Shown piece by piece: positions 53,097 to 60,133 of a stretch of DNA of 64,000 bases. Both the position numbers and the translations under genes were made by a program. This DNA is from Escherichia phage RB49. Where the stretch lies: sequence record NC_005066.1; one strand, 5' to 3'. Below the pieces are notes generated by a model. The model made no database searches, was not told the DNA's origin, and was given only the letters and a program-made list of their open reading frames with translations. How positions within the stretch are numbered: the first letter of the stretch is position 1; every line of letters begins with the position of its first letter.

Positions 53097-53136
53097 TGTT
53101 TGATTCTCCTAAGTGGTATCTCGTCTTGATGGTTGT

Positions 53137-53165
53137 ATTGTAGGGGAGTTATCCTCCCCTGTCAA
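53137..53165 (-). promoter_or_regulatory. early promoter cassette C (TTGACA-17-TACAAT)
   Basis: spacer is hairpin GGGGAG-loop-CTCCCC. Confidence 0.6.
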
Positions 53166-53179
53166 CACTTTTTATAAAA

Positions 53180-53347
53180 TTATTTGTTAATTTCTGGTGC
53201 GTTGCTAGGATAGTAACCTTCTTTAACTCCGAGGTATTTCGCAACCATCCCTACAATCTTCTGTGCTACTACAATGTCAAATTTCAGATAATCTTCGCCG
53301 TGGGTTTCAACGATATATGCTTCACATGCTGCTTTAGTCTCGAACAT
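53180..53347 (-). CDS. small hypothetical protein (55 aa), duplicate copy 1
   Basis: about 85 percent nt identity to 57506-57673; ORF track entry 53284-53490 reads on through the promoter. Confidence 0.5.
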   Translation of the reverse strand: MFETKAACEAYIVETHGEDYLKFDIVVAQKIVGMVAKYLGVKEGYYPSNAPEINK

Positions 53348-53380
53348 TTTGATTCTCCTATTTCGTTTCGGTATGTGTGT

Positions 53381-53409
53381 ATTATAGGGGATCTCCCGAT
53401 CCCCGTCAA
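53381..53409 (-). promoter_or_regulatory. early promoter cassette D (TTGACG-17-TATAAT)
   Basis: spacer hairpin GGGGATC-loop-GATCCCC. Confidence 0.6.
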
Positions 53410-53422
53410 CAACTTTTTTAGA

Positions 53423-53899
53423 TTATTTGCACCACACTGTAATTTTCTTATCATGTTGGTAGTGAATCCATCGAATATCATCTTTATCAATCATGACAGT
53501 AACATACCCATTTACTAGTGATTTGTCAAAACGGTTATGTAACAGTGCAATATATTGAAAGAATGGTTCTTTTGTATTTGAATATATTCCCTTACCATCA
53601 AACGTCATGACATTTTTGTGAACTTTAAATTCATTACGAAGAACAGCCGTCATTGTCCCGTCTTCATTAGTTTTGAGTTTTAATTCGGATTCTTTGTAAA
53701 AATATGCGTCACGGGCTTTACTTTCTTCCCCGTCTTGTACTCTTACTTCACTAGCATAATCACACTGATAGGTCTTATCTACATTTTCGATCTTTTCTTG
53801 TGTCATATCAAAAAGCGGTGCGACCTTTTTCTTGGCCGCGTGTGCTACGTTGGTCATGGACAGTGCTGCAACAACCGCAATAGCAATAATCTTCTTCAT
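53423..53899 (-). CDS. secreted/periplasmic protein with N-terminal signal peptide
   Basis: MKKIIAIAVVAALSMTNVAHA signal peptide; 158 aa. Confidence 0.6.
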   Translation of the reverse strand: MKKIIAIAVVAALSMTNVAHAAKKKVAPLFDMTQEKIENVDKTYQCDYASEVRVQDGEESKARDAYFYKESELKLKTNEDGTMTAVLRNEFKVHKNVMTFDGKGIYSNTKEPFFQYIALLHNRFDKSLVNGYVTVMIDKDDIRWIHYQHDKKITVWCK

Positions 53900-53929
53900 A
53901 GTATTCTCCTTTTGTTTTGTGTTGGGAGT

Positions 53930-53958
53930 ATCTTAGCGACACTCCCGTTATTTTTCAA
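53930..53958 (-). promoter_or_regulatory. early promoter cassette E (TTGAAA-17-TAAGAT)
   Basis: weaker hexamers; hairpin GGGAGT/ACTCCC overlaps -10. Confidence 0.45.
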
Positions 53959-53964
53959 ATCTTT

Positions 53965-54246
53965 TTATTCGTGATTAGTTTCGATGTTGTGCATTTTGCA
54001 CCAGTTCAACCAATCGCCCAGATCTTGATAGTTGATGCTTTTATCTGCTGCCATCGTTTTTGTCTTGATACCCATATGTGCGTTATGAGTAAGCATTTTT
54101 ACAGTGAACTCAATTTTATCACCTTTAGCTTTAACATCAACCAGTTTGGTCCACTGGCTACCAGCGCCGCGAATGTTCATACCAACGATGTTTCCGATGT
54201 ATGCTTCTTTGTTTTTCAGGATTTCGGTTGCTTTGATGAATTTCAT
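53965..54246 (-). CDS. hypothetical early protein (93 aa)
   Basis: ATG after cassette F. Confidence 0.55.
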   Translation of the reverse strand: MKFIKATEILKNKEAYIGNIVGMNIRGAGSQWTKLVDVKAKGDKIEFTVKMLTHNAHMGIKTKTMAADKSINYQDLGDWLNWCKMHNIETNHE

Positions 54247-54279
54247 TTTTGATTCTCCAGTTCGTTTCGGTATGGGTGT

Positions 54280-54308
54280 ATTATGCTATGTTCTTACTTT
54301 GGTGTCAA
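54280..54308 (-). promoter_or_regulatory. early promoter cassette F (TTGACA-17-CATAAT)
   Basis: consensus -35, conserved leader ACACCCATACCGAAACGA. Confidence 0.65.
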
Positions 54309-54315
54309 CAACTTT

Positions 54316-54585
54316 TTAGATATTTTCAGAAATAAATTTTAAAACTTGACGTAAATGTTTCTCATCTTTGATAGTCGCCGGAAGTTCTTCTTTTACTTCC
54401 TGTGCAAGATAGATATTTCCGTTCCAAGTGAAAGATCCGTCTTCGTTTACGCGATAGCTGAACATCCACTCGCAATCATTTTCGATTTCATATACACACA
54501 GAAGGGTGTAATCGTTAAAGCTAGTGATTTCAAGGTCGAAGCCGTGACGTTTTGCAAAGTTGGTAGTGGTTTTAGTCAGTGCCAT
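54316..54585 (-). CDS. hypothetical early protein (89 aa)
   Basis: ATG after cassette G. Confidence 0.55.
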   Translation of the reverse strand: MALTKTTTNFAKRHGFDLEITSFNDYTLLCVYEIENDCEWMFSYRVNEDGSFTWNGNIYLAQEVKEELPATIKDEKHLRQVLKFISENI

Positions 54586-54625
54586 TGTTTGATTCTCCTA
54601 AGTGGTATCTCGTCTTGATGGGTGT

Positions 54626-54654
54626 ATTATGCTATAGTCGTGATCTGGTGTCAA
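54626..54654 (-). promoter_or_regulatory. early promoter cassette G (TTGACA-17-CATAAT)
   Basis: consensus -35; follows terminator hairpin. Confidence 0.65.
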
Positions 54655-54684
54655 CAACTTTTTTAAATTTTTGGAAATAAAAAA

Positions 54685-54702
54685 GCCGACACTAAGGTCG
54701 GC
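54685..54702 (-). terminator. intrinsic terminator (minus strand)
   Basis: GCCGAC-loop-GTCGGC then T-run on minus strand. Confidence 0.6.
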
Positions 54703-54707
54703 ACATT

Positions 54708-55019
54708 TTAAAAATTCTTGCTATATATGCAAGCCTCATAATCTAGAGGATGACCGCCAATCCTACCAGGCTTAATATTCCAACCGCATCGATATTTTCT
54801 GACCATGCTAACCGTTTCGGTTCTTAGAGCATTTCTTTGCAAATCATACCCCCTAAATTCTTGTCTATAAGGACAGTCCGCTTTGCAAGTTGGCGGTTCT
54901 ACGTCATTTAGCGGGTCGGAAGCAGTTGGCTTTATTATCAATTCTTTGTTTGCAATAATCATAAGCACATCCCATTGAAGACAATTTAACATCTTCGCAA
55001 TAAGTGTTGAATCCGTCAA
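54708..55019 (-). CDS. Cys-rich hypothetical protein (overlaps next ORF; possible frameshifted gene)
   Basis: 103 aa ORF overlapping 54904-55095 in another frame. Confidence 0.35.
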   Translation of the reverse strand: MTDSTLIAKMLNCLQWDVLMIIANKELIIKPTASDPLNDVEPPTCKADCPYRQEFRGYDLQRNALRTETVSMVRKYRCGWNIKPGRIGGHPLDYEACIYSKNF

Positions 55020-55095
55020 ATACGATCACTTCGTATTTGACTCCATCAGCGATAGCTTTTACTTTATACCATCCATGCTTGTATAAAATCTTCAT
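54904..55095 (-). CDS. Cys-rich hypothetical protein (63 aa)
   Basis: ATG after cassette H with GAGGA RBS. Confidence 0.45.
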   Translation of the reverse strand: MKILYKHGWYKVKAIADGVKYEVIVFDGFNTYCEDVKLSSMGCAYDYCKQRIDNKANCFRPAK

Positions 55096-55127
55096 CTTTA
55101 TTTCCTCAATCTCGTTTCGATGGGTGT

Positions 55128-55157
55128 ATTATGCTATAGGCTAGACCAGGTTGTCAA
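55128..55157 (-). promoter_or_regulatory. early promoter cassette H (TTGACA-18-CATAAT)
   Basis: consensus -35. Confidence 0.6.
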
Positions 55158-55188
55158 CAACTTTTTTAATTTTTTGGGAAATAAAAAA

Positions 55189-55206
55189 GCCGACGCTAAG
55201 GTCGGC
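55189..55206 (-). terminator. intrinsic terminator (minus strand)
   Basis: GCCGAC-loop-GTCGGC then T-run; near-identical to hairpin at 54685. Confidence 0.6.
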
Positions 55207-55214
55207 TAATAAAA

Positions 55215-55523
55215 TCATTTGGACAAATAATCATTCTGTGCAATCCGGTCGGCGTATGCTGGTGTTATGTCAATCGCCAGCACTTTAACGCGTGCTTTCT
55301 TGCGACCTGGGTTTTCTCGTAACCAGTGCTCATGACCGTGAACATTTTTATACTTTGATGCTTCTTCAAATGTACGGATCGGACCTGGGTAATCAGCGTA
55401 AAGGATCTCTAGGTCTTCGGTGATGTAAAAATATACATCGTAATTACTGTTCTCTAGTTTAAGCAGAGAGTTGCGAAATTGTGGTAAATTCTCGCGGGTA
55501 AATTCAACTACAAGATTTTTCAT
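55215..55523 (-). CDS. hypothetical protein, HxHW...VLAVDV-motif family, paralog 1
   Basis: VYFYITEDL ... HGHEHWLREN ... VLAIDI. Confidence 0.6.
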   Translation of the reverse strand: MKNLVVEFTRENLPQFRNSLLKLENSNYDVYFYITEDLEILYADYPGPIRTFEEASKYKNVHGHEHWLRENPGRKKARVKVLAIDITPAYADRIAQNDYLSK

Positions 55524-55552
55524 AGTGATATCCTCATTCAGATAGATTAAAA

Positions 55553-55567
55553 GGGGCTTAACGCCCC
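55553..55567 (-). terminator. hairpin terminator (minus strand)
   Basis: GGGGC-loop-GCCCC then U-rich on minus strand. Confidence 0.45.
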
Positions 55568-55574
55568 CCGTATA

Positions 55575-55862
55575 TTAAAACAGTCCTTCCTGTACACCGT
55601 AGTAGAGTTCGTCACTGATAATTTCATTAATGCGACGGTGTGCATATTCCTGATTTGCGAAGTTATCAGCAAGTTCTACTTTAGTTTCGCCGTCATGAGT
55701 CCATTTAGTGATAACTTTACCATCTGCAAATTTGAAGTTGAACTCTTTAGCTACTGCATCGCGTACCAGACGTGCGAACTTGTTGTTACGGATGGCATTA
55801 TCGGTTTCGTGTGCAGCGTGAGCGAATTTGTTAACTTTCAGAGTGATAGTAATGTATGCCAT
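55575..55862 (-). CDS. hypothetical early protein (95 aa), AKEFN family copy 1
   Basis: RLVRDAVAKEFNFK parallels REVRKALAKEFNTK of 58891-59220. Confidence 0.55.
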   Translation of the reverse strand: MAYITITLKVNKFAHAAHETDNAIRNNKFARLVRDAVAKEFNFKFADGKVITKWTHDGETKVELADNFANQEYAHRRINEIISDELYYGVQEGLF

Positions 55863-55908
55863 AATTTGATTCTCCTAGTTAGAAAGTGTATCTCGTTTCG
55901 ATGGGGAT

Positions 55909-55937
55909 ATTATGCTATATCCCCGATCCGGTGTCAA
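55909..55937 (-). promoter_or_regulatory. early promoter cassette J (TTGACA-17-CATAAT)
   Basis: -10 in loop of GGGGATAT/ATATCCCC hairpin. Confidence 0.65.
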
Positions 55938-55943
55938 CACTTT

Positions 55944-56237
55944 TTATAAAATAATTTTTTGATATTTTTCTATGATGTTTGTGTAGGTCACGTCAACCGC
56001 TAGCACCGTTGCTTCGAATCCACCGTTTAGCCAATGGCTATGATCATGATCGTGAAAGAAACCTAGACCAGTACGAAGACCTTCTTTATATTCTGCGCGT
56101 ACATTCAGTTTGTCGTCGATAAACAGATAAAACCATGAATTTTTACTAGGATTGATGATACAACCTTTCAGATTAGGAAGAATATCACGACTAAGAATAA
56201 ACTTATCACCTACTTTGAACATAATATTAGTCCTCAC
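55944..56237 (-). CDS. hypothetical protein, HxHW family, paralog 2 (probable true start at internal ATG near 56222)
   Basis: WFYLFIDDKL ... HDHDHSHWLNG ... VLAVDV. Confidence 0.55.
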   Translation of the reverse strand: MRTNIMFKVGDKFILSRDILPNLKGCIINPSKNSWFYLFIDDKLNVRAEYKEGLRTGLGFFHDHDHSHWLNGGFEATVLAVDVTYTNIIEKYQKIIL

Positions 56238-56547
56238 TTATAAGGTCAAACCAATTGTTTTTCGCATAATGCTTAATGCGTGCTTGATCTGCTTCCGCTG
56301 GTGATAGATTCCATGCAACCACTACAACTTCTGACGCATCGTCATCCGTTTCTGATACCCAATGATTGTGATTCATACAGTTATTTGCTATCGAGTGAGC
56401 AAATGATTTCATCACTGGAGACGTATAATCATAGTAACGGATTTTCAGATTTTCATCAACGTACAAGTAGATCGTATACGGCTTATATTCAGTAACCAGT
56501 AACAGACAGTTACGCAATTCTGGGAAAATCTTTTTAGTTAATTTCAT
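56227..56547 (-). CDS. hypothetical protein, HxHW family, paralog 3
   Basis: start placed at MKLTKK with GAGGA RBS; TIYLYVDENL ... NHNHWVSE ... VVVVAW; ORF track extends to 56628. Confidence 0.5.
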   Translation of the reverse strand: MKLTKKIFPELRNCLLLVTEYKPYTIYLYVDENLKIRYYDYTSPVMKSFAHSIANNCMNHNHWVSETDDDASEVVVVAWNLSPAEADQARIKHYAKNNWFDLISED

Positions 56548-56548
56548 T

Positions 56549-56767
56549 TTATAATCCTCGGTCTCGGCTATAGTACACGGTACGCCATACAATTTCATGT
56601 TTCGTGTCGCTCCAGCACACGATCTCATTTACTCTTAAATCTTTGTTATCAACAAAAGATGAACATTGTGACGCTTCTTTCATCATTTTATCTGCTGTTT
56701 TCTCATCAAATACAGCACAGATTTCTTTATACACTCGATAATCTTTGAATTGACTCTGAATACCCAT
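56549..56767 (-). CDS. hypothetical protein, KMMxxASxC family copy 1
   Basis: start placed at MGIQSQFKDY; paralog of 56727-56990. Confidence 0.45.
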   Translation of the reverse strand: MGIQSQFKDYRVYKEICAVFDEKTADKMMKEASQCSSFVDNKDLRVNEIVCWSDTKHEIVWRTVYYSRDRGL

Positions 56768-56990
56768 AATTAACACCATTCCAACCAATTGTTTTTGAGA
56801 AAACGTTTATCCACTGTTGAGTGTAGCATGTTTCTTTCCATGATACAATACGAGTGGAATAATGGTTTTTGTTTCCAGAAAAGGACGGGCATTTTGATGC
56901 ATCTTCCATCATCTTTTCGGCGAACTCTGGTGCGTATACTCGCAGGATCTGTTGATATGCTTTGTATTCTTTAAATTTGCTCATAATCAT
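56727..56990 (-). CDS. hypothetical protein, KMMxxASxC family copy 2
   Basis: MSKFKEYKAY...AEKMMEDASKCPSF; 3' end overlaps next gene by about 40 nt. Confidence 0.5.
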   Translation of the reverse strand: MIMSKFKEYKAYQQILRVYAPEFAEKMMEDASKCPSFSGNKNHYSTRIVSWKETCYTQQWINVFSKTIGWNGVNYGYSESIQRLSSV

Positions 56991-57249
56991 TCACTACCTT
57001 ATCAGCTTCTTTTGTTGTTTTTACATCAACTGCGATAACTCGTAAAGGTTCGTCATGGTTCCACCAGTGGTCATGAATATCAGCTTGTGATTTATCACCA
57101 AAGGAATCACGAATATCATTTTTACATTTATAGCTAATGTGACCTTCATAGTCAACATAAAGGTAATTATCGAAAATCGGCGTTTTTAAGATCATACCGA
57201 AAAATCTTTCTTTGTGTGTCTTATCCAGCGTTGCAGTAATTCGCATCAT
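56971..57249 (-). CDS. hypothetical protein, HxHW family, paralog 4
   Basis: NYLYVDYEGH ... HDHWWNHDE ... VIAVDV. Confidence 0.55.
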   Translation of the reverse strand: MMRITATLDKTHKERFFGMILKTPIFDNYLYVDYEGHISYKCKNDIRDSFGDKSQADIHDHWWNHDEPLRVIAVDVKTTKEADKVVNDYEQI

Positions 57250-57261
57250 AATATATTCCTC

Positions 57262-57441
57262 TTAGAAAGGGATGGTCATTTCTTGAGCTTGTACATTCTC
57301 GTTAGGATTAAACTTCATCCAGCCGATATTGTCTACCAGCATATGCACATTTTTATCATATCCTACGTGAGTAGTCAACACTAAATGTGCTTTACCTTCA
57401 ATGATGAGTTCCATGTACTTCTGAACTTCGATAGCTTTCAT
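57262..57441 (-). CDS. hypothetical early protein (59 aa)
   Basis: ATG after cassette K; below ORF-track cutoff. Confidence 0.45.
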   Translation of the reverse strand: MKAIEVQKYMELIIEGKAHLVLTTHVGYDKNVHMLVDNIGWMKFNPNENVQAQEMTIPF

Positions 57442-57473
57442 TTTGATTCTCCGTTTGTTGTCTTGATGGGAGT

Positions 57474-57502
57474 ATCTTACTACTCCATTTAATCATTGTC
57501 AA
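57474..57502 (-). promoter_or_regulatory. early promoter cassette K (TTGACA-17-TAAGAT)
   Basis: consensus -35; hairpin GGAGTA/TACTCC overlaps -10. Confidence 0.5.
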
Positions 57503-57505
57503 CTA

Positions 57506-57673
57506 TTATTTGTTAATTTCTGGTGCGTTGCTCGGATAGTAACCTTCTTTAACACCTAGATATTTTGCAACCATTCCGGTGATCTTCTGTGCTACTACGA
57601 TATCGAATTTCAGGTAGTCTTCACCGTGGTTTGCTACAATGTATGCTTCGCATTCTGCTTTAGTCTGGAACAT
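57506..57673 (-). CDS. small hypothetical protein (55 aa), duplicate copy 2
   Basis: near-identical to 53180-53347 protein; ORF track entry extends through promoter. Confidence 0.5.
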   Translation of the reverse strand: MFQTKAECEAYIVANHGEDYLKFDIVVAQKITGMVAKYLGVKEGYYPSNAPEINK

Positions 57674-57707
57674 TTTTGATTCTCCTATATCTCGTTGGTA
57701 TGTGTGC

Positions 57708-57736
57708 ATTATAGGGGATCACCGATCCCCTGTCAA
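57708..57736 (-). promoter_or_regulatory. early promoter cassette L (TTGACA-17-TATAAT)
   Basis: spacer is perfect hairpin GGGGATC-GGT-GATCCCC. Confidence 0.7.
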
Positions 57737-57741
57737 CAACT

Positions 57742-58035
57742 TTATAATGCTTTATATGCGTATTTCATAAATTTGTCTGCCACTTCATTGGCATGTTCAG
57801 ATTCTACGCCTGATTCGAGAACAATAGCTAGGTCGGTTTCGTCATTCCCGCCGTACCAATGATTTGATGTTCGATTTTTTTCAATTGGAAATTGGTCACT
57901 TTTATCTGTGCGACAAAATACATCTAAATGCTCGTCGATGTAAAAGATCCAATCTTCATAAAGAATAACGGTATTAGCAAGATTTTTATTGCCTTCAACG
58001 AAAGGTTCCGCGACAAATAGCTTAGTTTGTTCCAT
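57742..58035 (-). CDS. hypothetical protein, HxHW family, paralog 5
   Basis: start placed at MEQTKLF with GAGGA RBS; WIFYIDEHL ... SNHWYGGNDE; ORF track extends to 58092. Confidence 0.5.
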   Translation of the reverse strand: MEQTKLFVAEPFVEGNKNLANTVILYEDWIFYIDEHLDVFCRTDKSDQFPIEKNRTSNHWYGGNDETDLAIVLESGVESEHANEVADKFMKYAYKAL

Positions 58036-58051
58036 AGTAATTTCCTCAAAA

Positions 58052-58243
58052 TTATACAGTTTCGTAAACTTCCCAATGTTCAGCGCCAACACGCTTAACG
58101 AAAAGGTTTTCTTTGATGTTATTCATAAACGTCTGGATGGATTTAATGCGGTTTGAAGGTTTCCATTCTTCGTTGGCATTGCGTCGATACATCATAACAT
58201 TACCAGTTCGCTTATATTCAGCAACCATTTTAAGACCACACAT
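58052..58243 (-). CDS. hypothetical protein (63 aa)
   Basis: ATG with GAGGA RBS. Confidence 0.4.
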   Translation of the reverse strand: MCGLKMVAEYKRTGNVMMYRRNANEEWKPSNRIKSIQTFMNNIKENLFVKRVGAEHWEVYETV

Positions 58244-58300
58244 AATATTATCCTCAATTTGTGGGAGAGTATTACCCCTCCCAATGATTGTTATGTTATA

Positions 58301-58621
58301 TCACACAAAATGGCGTGTCAATGCTTCTTTTGCGGTTCCGCTAAGACTTTCAATCTCGCCTGGCATAACATCAACCGCCAGAACTTCTACAACATCCTCG
58401 GACCCTAACCAGTGAGTATGGCCTTTGTAGAACTTGATAACCAGACCACCTTCCTCGTCCCATTTAACGCTATCGCTAGCCCACCACACATCACCGTCGA
58501 TAAAGTTGATGTAAAGCACACTACGCCACATTGAATTAATTACTTTCAATACTGCGCCTTTCATCTCTTCCACGGTATGGTCTTCCATTTTGAAGACCTC
58601 ACCTACCTGAACTTTTGCCAT
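58301..58621 (-). CDS. hypothetical protein, HxHW family, paralog 6
   Basis: VLYINFIDGD ... KGHTHWLGSED ... VLAVDV. Confidence 0.6.
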   Translation of the reverse strand: MAKVQVGEVFKMEDHTVEEMKGAVLKVINSMWRSVLYINFIDGDVWWASDSVKWDEEGGLVIKFYKGHTHWLGSEDVVEVLAVDVMPGEIESLSGTAKEALTRHFV

Positions 58622-58638
58622 TTAGTCACCTCTCTTTA

Positions 58639-58818
58639 TTACATAACAATCACGCCAGCCGTTGAAAGTTGATGTTTCAACTGAGCATTTTCTGCTACCG
58701 TCAAATCAATGATTTCTTGTGACGCTGCAATCATATAGCCATTGGTGATATTGTTTTGCATCAGTTCAATGGTTTCTTCGTTGTAGCGGATTTTAGCGAT
58801 GATTTCGTTGAAGTTCAT
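58639..58818 (-). CDS. hypothetical early protein (59 aa)
   Basis: start placed at MNFNEIIAK after cassette M; ORF track entry 58639-58884 reads through promoter. Confidence 0.45.
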   Translation of the reverse strand: MNFNEIIAKIRYNEETIELMQNNITNGYMIAASQEIIDLTVAENAQLKHQLSTAGVIVM

Positions 58819-58852
58819 AATTGATTCTCCTAGTTCGTTTCGGTATGTGTGT

Positions 58853-58881
58853 AGTATAGGGGATCGGTGATCCCCTGTCAA
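58853..58881 (-). promoter_or_regulatory. early promoter cassette M (TTGACA-17-TATACT)
   Basis: spacer hairpin GGGGATC-ACC-GATCCCC. Confidence 0.6.
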
Positions 58882-58890
58882 CAACTTTTT

Positions 58891-59220
58891 TTAAAGTTTT
58901 TCCATGATAACGGTCATAATTACATCTTCTGCGCGAGCTGTCAGATTATCAGCGTCAGCATGTGGGCGGTTGGTTGTTACAGAGATAACACCGTTGCGCA
59001 CTGGTTTGATATTGATATCAAGATGATCCGCGAAACGTTCGTGATCCGCGAAACGTTCGCCAGTTACAGAATGAATTTTGGTGTTAAATTCTTTTGCCAG
59101 TGCCTTGCGAACTTCACGAATCAGGATAGCGTTTTTCAGTTGGTTCTCCGCGCTCATGGTCTTCTGGGTGTTCATGGTTCCGTCGAAGTCAATCATTGGC
59201 AGCGTTACGATGTATTTCAT
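58891..59220 (-). CDS. hypothetical early protein (109 aa), AKEFN family copy 2, with internal ERFADH tandem duplication
   Basis: paralog of 55575-55862; contains 18 bp tandem repeat. Confidence 0.55.
   Translation of the reverse strand: MKYIVTLPMIDFDGTMNTQKTMSAENQLKNAILIREVRKALAKEFNTKIHSVTGERFADHERFADHLDINIKPVRNGVISVTTNRPHADADNLTARAEDVIMTVIMEKL
59025..59060. repeat. 2 x 18 bp tandem direct repeat (GATCCGCGAAACGTTCGT / ...GC)
   Basis: 17 of 18 identical; in-frame within CDS 58891-59220. Confidence 0.75.
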
Positions 59221-59265
59221 TTTTGATTCTCCGTTTAAGAAAGTGTGTTTCGTTTTGATGTGTGT

Positions 59266-59294
59266 AGTATAGGGGATACGTGATCCCCTGTCAA
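59266..59294 (-). promoter_or_regulatory. early promoter cassette N (TTGACA-17-TATACT)
   Basis: spacer hairpin GGGGAT-loop-ATCCCC. Confidence 0.6.
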
Positions 59295-59307
59295 CAACTT
59301 TTTTGAA

Positions 59308-59652
59308 TTATTTTTTCATGAGCTTAATGGCTTCTTCCATAGCCAGCACATTTCGATAGTTAGGGTATCGTGTTAGATCGTCATACATTCGCTTAAGGGT
59401 GGAAACTTCCTCAAACTCTGGGTTTTCTAGATACAGTTGAACAAATTGTTTCTCTACCATCTCTGCTTTTAGCTTGTCTGCTTGTTCCTGTTCATATGAT
59501 TTAGTTGGACCCAACACCAACAAAATGATAAAGGTGATCAACGGGCTAATGATCAACGATAGGAGAACATAACCGATAACGCTACGGTTTAAACGGCTTG
59601 CGTACATGCCTACTAGGAAAACAAAAAGGATATAGATAAACAGAAAGAACAT
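59308..59652 (-). CDS. membrane protein (two N-terminal TM helices plus cytoplasmic tail)
   Basis: hydrophobic stretches at residues about 1-20 and 27-47. Confidence 0.55.
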   Translation of the reverse strand: MFFLFIYILFVFLVGMYASRLNRSVIGYVLLSLIISPLITFIILLVLGPTKSYEQEQADKLKAEMVEKQFVQLYLENPEFEEVSTLKRMYDDLTRYPNYRNVLAMEEAIKLMKK

Positions 59653-59659
59653 ATAATGG

Positions 59660-60133
59660 TTACTCCTTATTTTCTCGCTCGTACTTTTCGAAATAAAATT
59701 CTACTGGCTGGTCATGAATTGACAGCAAGCCAAAGCGTTTAGCCGCTCGCAATCCCATATTGCGCTGAATGTACTTCTGGAAGTTCTCGCGTATACACTT
59801 ACGCCAGTATTCTAAGCCCATACAGCTTTTATAAAGATTGCATTGCACACACGCCGGATTCATGTTATCAAGTATATCATGTTCCGGTTTATGCATTCCT
59901 ACAACCTTATACTTCCACGATCCATCATCATTACGGGCAATTCGTCCATTTTCATCATAGACTACCTTTGAGCGTCGCAATACTGGTTTGATGTGGTCTG
60001 CGTGCCAGCGATCCCCTAGTTCCTCGCCACAATAGGCACAACGTCCACCATATTTCATTTTCAGGATCTGGCGTTGCTCTTTCTTTGACAATTTTTTAGG
60101 TTTAGGGGCTTTCGCCCCTTCATTATCACACAT
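59660..60133 (-). CDS. HNH endonuclease
   Basis: CAYCG ... HADHIKP ... N ... CVQCN HNH motif; start overlaps ligase stop. Confidence 0.7.
   Translation of the reverse strand: MCDNEGAKAPKPKKLSKKEQRQILKMKYGGRCAYCGEELGDRWHADHIKPVLRRSKVVYDENGRIARNDDGSWKYKVVGMHKPEHDILDNMNPACVQCNLYKSCMGLEYWRKCIRENFQKYIQRNMGLRAAKRFGLLSIHDQPVEFYFEKYERENKE

Follow-up and report, generated by a model that had tools for sequence, protein, structure and literature searches.

The stretch analysed here, referred to below as the window, comprises 64,000 nucleotides of the genome of Escherichia phage RB49 (sequence record NC_005066.1), and the subject of this work is a group of six small genes, designated p1 to p6, located between positions 55215 and 58621 on the minus strand of the window and encoding proteins of 92-106 amino acids (aa) each. 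Krischvirus is a genus of T4-like coliphages of the Straboviridae, and about 50 of its genomes, among them those of RB49, Phi1, JSE and KFS-EC, match the 4-kb region at 92-97% identity. The six open reading frames (ORFs) were all found where an earlier note on this DNA had placed them: p1 (55215..55523, 102 aa, with the motifs HGHEHW and VLAIDI), p2 (55944..56222, 92 aa, HDHSHW and VLAVDV), p3 (56227..56547, 106 aa, NHNHW and VVAWNL), p4 (56971..57249, 92 aa, HDHWW and VIAVDV), p5 (57742..58035, 97 aa, SNHW and LESGV) and p6 (58301..58621, 106 aa, GHTHW and VLAVDV). The ORF of p2 extends to a GTG at 56237, so that the span 55944-56237 given earlier is correct for the ORF; translation most likely starts at the ATG at 56222 and the GTG is probably not used, because GAGGA lies 8 nt upstream of this ATG, within the last codons of p3, and because the resulting size agrees with the 279-nt annotation in KFS-EC and with the 92-aa RB49 protein.

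The earlier note, made from the sequence alone, had taken these genes for a paralogous family in which an HxHW box and a VLAVDV strand recur in otherwise strongly diverged proteins. This has proved correct: the six genes form one family. MAFFT alignments of 6, 27 and 57 sequences bring three elements into register, namely an aromatic strand (YxYID), the HxHW box and a further strand (VLAxDV), the second His and the Trp of HxHW being invariant and the first His at least 90% conserved. Identity to p1, the first sequence of the alignment, is only 20-33%, and pairwise BLASTP gives a strong match for p1-p3 (8e-13), marginal ones for p1-p2, p1-p6 and p2-p4 (about 2e-3), and none between p5 and the other five members. 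The relationship rests on hidden Markov model (HMM) profiles built with one member left out and scored against the 589 ORFs of 40 aa or more in the window, which recover each omitted member with E values of 1e-11 (p1), 6e-8 (p2), 3e-13 (p3), 8e-7 (p4), 7.5e-4 (p5) and 8e-7 (p6), the omitted member being the sole extra match in every run. With the HMMER filters switched off, the six members scored at E <= 1e-21 against the family HMM and the next window ORF at 0.13; a seventh paralog was thus not found in the window. A regular expression for the three-part motif matched exactly the six family ORFs, and nothing in 200 residue shuffles.

The weakest and most divergent member is p5, in which the motifs are reduced to SNHW and LESGV. 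Its membership is supported by the leave-one-out profile, by the alleles of other genomes, which carry HNHW and VLASDV at these places, and by a predicted structure of the same topology as that of p2.

AlphaFold2 models of p2 (predicted local distance difference test score, pLDDT, 89.5; predicted TM-score 0.84) and p5 (pLDDT 91.6; predicted TM-score 0.85) agree in the order of their elements: one beta-strand and a short helix are followed by three more strands, by a second short helix that starts at HxHW, by the VLAxDV strand and finally by a C-terminal helix that begins at a conserved Ala-Asp. All copies are accordingly predicted to share one compact alpha/beta domain with a beta-meander core and an amphipathic C-terminal helix. 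In a BFVD structure search the top matches were the family's own paralogs (TM-score 0.6-0.69), and no solved fold neighbour of the family was found. An extra 88-aa gene beside p6, absent from the window, occurs in JSE (contig L007, 2854-3120) and in G2248 (contig L009, 2693-2959); its product is similar in fold to the family (BFVD E 0.029, TM-score 0.59-0.65) and has YVTED- and LLAHSV-like strands, GHL replaces HxHW, and the family HMM scores it at only E 0.14. It is possibly a seventh member that has lost the motif.

Conservation was assessed on 25 non-redundant members (<70% identity), with p5 numbering. The most conserved positions are H59 and W60 (both 100%), A82 (95%), Y32 and H57, the first His of HxHW (both 92%), and D34, the Asp of YID (88%). 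The strand designated acidic in the earlier note is in register, whereas its acidic residue is not well kept (the Asp of VLAVDV is 56% conserved), and the conserved polar set consists of Asp, His and His together with the Trp. The histidines on which the note had based a metal-binding or catalytic site have been borne out as the hallmark of the family, and a metal or catalytic role for them is plausible; the polar set as a whole could plausibly form a site for a metal or a ligand. Variability is greater in loops than in secondary-structure elements (entropy 2.61 versus 2.04). The proteins are neutral to acidic and Cys-poor (median isoelectric point 5.6; 4.5 for p5 and 4.8 for p6); the first property speaks against nucleic-acid binding and the second against Cys-based zinc fingers.

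One explanation of this pattern is a small metalloenzyme, in which the Asp/His/His cluster would hold a catalytic metal and the protein would hydrolyse or modify a small molecule of the host or of its defences. The best-conserved polar residues, an Asp and two His, make up a combination that is common in mononuclear metal sites. The domain is, however, very small, no match to an enzyme family in Pfam or NCBIfam attains the curated cut-off, and six retained paralogs fit binders better than a single enzymatic activity. The first His is lost in the p5 allele of the window, a conserved and selected allele, and the Asp is replaced by Thr or Asn in p1 and p6, so a strict metal triad is not universal in the family. 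We consider an enzyme improbable. Readings of the motif as GIY-YIG, HIT or JAMM were judged by conserved residues and secondary structure and rejected. The GIY and YIG strands about 10 residues apart, together with the catalytic Arg, Glu and Asn of GIY-YIG nuclease domains, were not found. HIT proteins carry H-phi-H-phi-H-phi-phi on a beta-strand, whereas HxHW starts a helix in both models, its x positions are polar (N, D, T, S), a third His occurs only in p1 and p2, and no Pfam HIT match was obtained. Weak PROCT and UPF0758_N matches gave a lead to JAMM/MPN metalloproteases, for which the combination of the E...HxHx7Sx2D motif and an above-threshold Pfam match was not found.

The diversified multigene family of the earlier note is real and has gone unrecognised in curated libraries. 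Searches with the six members gave nothing meaningful in Pfam, NCBIfam or PADLOC, and the sequence search of the PDB found nothing for the family. In PHROGs the six genes are split over five families, all labelled 'unknown function', with full-length HMM matches of E 1e-48 to 4e-72: 9345 (p1, E 1e-48, and p3, E 4e-52), 17255 (p2), 15972 (p4), 15965 (p5) and 16486 (p6). Cross-matches among the five families (E 8e-5 to 0.03) join p1, p2, p3, p4 and p6; none was obtained for p5. In KFS-EC all genes of the region are annotated 'hypothetical protein', and no functional study of these genes was found in the literature searched.

Selection was estimated gene-wide from orthologue comparisons by the Nei-Gojobori method, as the ratio of nonsynonymous to synonymous substitution rates (dN/dS). 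The values are 0.21 for p1, 0.11 for p2, 0.04 for p3, 0.16 for p4, 0.22 for p5 and 0.13 for p6, which indicates purifying selection and the maintenance of each copy as a protein. The arms-race selection expected in the earlier note was not detected at this gene-wide level in any of the six. Synonymous divergence (dS) of p1 (0.33) and p5 (0.58) lies above the backbone value of about 0.1. The p5 gene is dimorphic, 29 records being at least 90% identical to it and 21 at 60-80%, and the 52 phage records with a p2 gene all carry it at 90% identity or more. In JSE the slot of p3 and p2 is taken by two other divergent family members. Diversity takes the form of divergent alleles (p5, p1) and of slot replacement (JSE). 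The low identity among the paralogs indicates that the duplications are old, and the six copies appear to be ancient, diverged paralogs. As a separate observation, the p5 and p1 orthologues of JSE (L007, 3707-4001 and 6054-6361) are each split by frameshifts into two annotated ORFs, which reflects either pseudogenisation or sequencing error.

Outside the window the family is narrowly distributed. When 5.8 billion proteins were searched with a profile, 89 matches were obtained, none with a Pfam domain, in which the long contigs and all named sources were phage contigs of Krischvirus size (~165-176 kb) or E. coli assemblies. Exhaustive HMMER searching of 1.84 billion cluster representatives gave only 23 clusters at E <= 1e-3, of which at least two are repeat-protein artefacts: P0097, a 2878-aa surface-repeat protein, and P0105, a 218-aa 'YHGHWLRQK' repeat protein, reached the threshold by summing many scores of about 5 bits and do not belong to the family. 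When distant members were compared by tblastn with 50,697 phage records, matches were found only in Escherichia and Shigella phages; every record whose taxonomy was checked was a Krischvirus, and the family was not found in other T4-like genera. Scanning IMG/VR with a subfamily alignment gave only two contigs, both of Krischvirus size, and scans with P0101 and with the fusion protein of contig L003, described below, gave no matches. The family therefore appears to be confined to the Krischvirus lineage. Members at 30-45% identity are found on a few short contigs from metagenomes, and one of these contigs, L002, carries five domains in four adjacent genes within 2.1 kb, interleaved with homologues of the 59-aa window ORFs at 58639-58818 and 57262-57441. 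Since this relative keeps the same arrangement at such low identity, the gene array is older than the cultivated genus.

This distribution bears on a phage-internal role, in which the proteins would modulate early processes of the phage itself, such as transcription switching, replication and nucleotide metabolism, or assembly chaperoning. The family HMM gave six matches in the same order in all seven genomes compared, every slot being filled by a family member, and this retention, together with the strong purifying selection, resembles core-like behaviour more than that of dispensable ORFans. The absence from other T4-like genera and the near-absence from the clusters mean, however, that the family cannot serve a conserved T4-type core process, and its location is a hyperplastic region among non-essential ORFans. 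The chance that the role is internal to the phage seems to us small.

The earlier note had also placed the genes in an early, promoter-dense accessory region, and this description holds, strong sigma-70 consensus promoters lying on the gene strand within repeats of ~75-95 nt. Within 10 kb the minus strand has nine promoters that match the consensus at 11-12 of 12 positions, embedded in repeat families D1-D6 of 73-95 nt. These repeats combine a promoter with a stem-loop, recur in a hyperplastic region and stand upstream of ORFans, as is characteristic of early promoter/stem-loop (PeSL) cassettes, and they are the cassettes of this kind known from RB49/phi1; at least seven copies of 73-95 nt lie in 53118-59324 (for example 57671-57743, 58816-58888 and 55890-55967). 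PeSL cassettes of RB49/phi1 have been shown experimentally to act as strong promoters and terminators, and they mediate the shuffling of ORFans (PMC2839356).

Three such minus-strand promoters are predicted to organize the six genes in three early transcription units. The promoter at 58853..58881 (TTGACA-17-TATACT; repeat families D1 and D2) would serve a 59-aa ORF, p6, a 63-aa ORF and p5; that at 57708..57736 (a perfect TTGACA-17-TATAAT) a 67-aa ORF, a 59-aa ORF, p4, the two family-C genes described below, p3 and p2; and that at 55909..55937 (TTGACA-17-CATAAT) a 95-aa family-B gene and p1, the final gene of its unit, whose stop codon is directly followed by an intrinsic-terminator-like hairpin and T-run (55188..55207, minus strand). 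In the 57736-57708 promoter, the clearest copy, a GC-rich stem-loop, GGGGATC-ggt-GATCCCC, lies inside the 17-nt spacer between -35 and -10, so that formation of the hairpin could preclude use of the promoter and vice versa. From the promoter type and the literature we infer that expression is early.

Several other features of the region were noted. Family B is a pair of genes (55575-55862 and 58891-59220, minus strand; PHROG 7474, 'unknown function'), each standing first after a PeSL promoter; its copy B2 is missing from some genomes, with a dN/dS of ~1 that derives from very few substitutions. A 172-nt direct repeat (53179-53350 and 57505-57676, 86% identity) duplicates most of the 67-aa gene 57506-57709 and is another recent duplication in the same hyperplastic region. 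A predicted membrane protein of 114 aa (59308-59652, minus strand; PHROG 25625) is found in only some Krischvirus genomes, and beside its gene lies an HNH endonuclease gene (59660-60133, minus strand) that abuts the DNA ligase. In the annotated relative KFS-EC the region is flanked by Alt-like ADP-ribosyltransferases and a DNA methyltransferase on one side and by an HNH endonuclease and DNA ligase (gene 30) on the other.

The PeSL setting also raises the question of whether the genes are mobile cassette cargo of little benefit to the phage, with copies persisting through cassette shuffling. PeSL repeats flank the units, PeSL recombination is documented to move ORFans (PMC2839356), and the same 7 kb hold several further ORFan families with duplicated members. 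On the other hand, purifying selection is seen in every copy, the duplications are old, synteny is kept even in the distant metagenomic relative, and most of the family genes are not individually flanked by PeSL elements; that the genes are such cargo is very unlikely.

Two overlapping paralogs of a further family, designated C (56727-56990 and 56549-56779, together 56549..56990, minus strand; PHROG 8471, 'unknown function'), lie directly upstream of p3. A C gene also stands directly upstream of a p1/p3-type HxHW gene on the independent metagenome contig L004 (C gene 95-331), and another such contig, L003 (318-1100), encodes an in-frame fusion of two C domains with an HxHW domain. Family C is therefore likely, from gene order and fusion, to be the partner of p1/p3-type members. 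P0090 is a natural tandem of two HxHW-family domains, adjacent members overlap by a few nucleotides in L002, and p3 and p2 are translationally coupled, the Shine-Dalgarno sequence of p2 lying inside the end of p3 and the two genes being replaced as a pair in JSE. Together with the synteny and fusion of family C, these arrangements are suggestive of homo- or hetero-oligomers and of family C as a functional partner.

Small early oligomers recall the phage proteins Tad2, Tad1 and Acb2, which are sponges of nucleotide second messengers. The HxHW proteins might likewise sequester immune signals (cyclic oligonucleotides, gcADPR, His-ADPR or similar) in an HxHW/Asp pocket, each paralog being tuned differently: their size, early expression and oligomer hints match the known sponges, and invariant His, His and Trp amid very divergent sequence resemble a small-molecule pocket. 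No relationship to DUF2829/Tad2/AcrIIA7 (PF11195) was detected by sequence. An hhalign comparison of 110 family sequences with 123 DUF2829 sequences, including ModTad2, AcrIIA7 and SptTad2, gave a probability of 0.05% (P 0.85), and PF11195 was absent among the Pfam matches listed at E <= 1 for the six members. We regard a sponge function as unlikely.

The reading that we prefer, with a probability of roughly one in three, is that the HxHW proteins are early, stoichiometric, oligomeric accessory binders aimed at host or defence components, with a shared metal or ligand site and paralog-specific loops. They would be soluble, non-structural accessory proteins made early from PeSL promoters and would act stoichiometrically, as homo- or hetero-oligomers, on components of the host or of its defences, p1/p3-type members working with the adjacent family-C protein. 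The near-invariant polar cluster (the YID Asp and His-x-His-Trp) would form a common metal- or ligand-binding site, and the hypervariable loops around it may confer an individual specificity on each paralog. Oligomerisation, the site and the host-directed role are what we infer from the evidence above. An anti-defence or host-takeover role, as the earlier note had suggested, is plausible, and the ADP-ribosyltransferases and methyltransferase near the array were counted as part of an early accessory context.

Several points weigh against these accessory binders. Homology, fold-neighbour and literature searches point to no target, metal or ligand, and no literature on the family was found in the library searched. 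D34, H57 and H59 are grouped as one site by conservation, not from coordinates, and the p5 allele of the window, p1 and p6 each depart from the Asp-His-His set. No gene-wide signature of positive selection appears in the dN/dS of the six genes, and the C-C-HxHW fusion rests on one short metagenome contig. A more ambitious version, possible though rather doubtful, is that the family constitutes a new class of counter-defence or host-takeover factors, with a fold that has no solved relative, in which hetero-oligomers, also with family C, would form around the His/His/Asp metal or ligand site and the six paralogs would be a panel of specificities against different immune signals or targets in E. 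coli.

Among the main reservoirs of unexplored host-interaction genes are the hyperplastic regions of T4-like phages. Here five 'unknown' PHROG families are merged into one, to which a defined motif, a fold predicted with confidence and a probable partner gene can be assigned, and purifying selection maintains all six copies throughout a genus that serves in phage therapy. The result is a compact and testable candidate set (six genes, one motif, one partner family) with a possibly new fold; should binding of a metal or an immune signal be found, the family would extend the phage counter-defence repertoire by a new scaffold.

Among known folds, small beta-barrels (SH3-like/KOW/Sm-like: mS34, eL14, eL27, RimP) show similarity scores in the twilight zone; three additional helices and the HxHW element set the family apart from them, and it is matched by none of the SH3 or KOW models of Pfam. 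A lineage-specific ORFan family in a PeSL hyperplastic region is in itself a known phenomenon, whereas the joining of the six genes in a single family, its motif, its fold without solved neighbours and its partner gene seem to be new, no prior description having been found in the libraries and papers searched. The closest comparison is with the PeSL-region ORFans of RB49/phi1-type phages (Arbiol et al. 2010, PMC2839356), which belong to the same genus and the same kind of region, are small genes without known function, stand likewise behind strong sigma-70-like promoter/stem-loop cassettes and undergo allele replacement between close phages. Text searches of that paper gave no mention of paralogs or gene families; the genes described here make up one six-member family with a shared motif and fold, and, in contrast to the variable presence of PeSL-region ORFans, the HxHW family is kept in all genomes compared.

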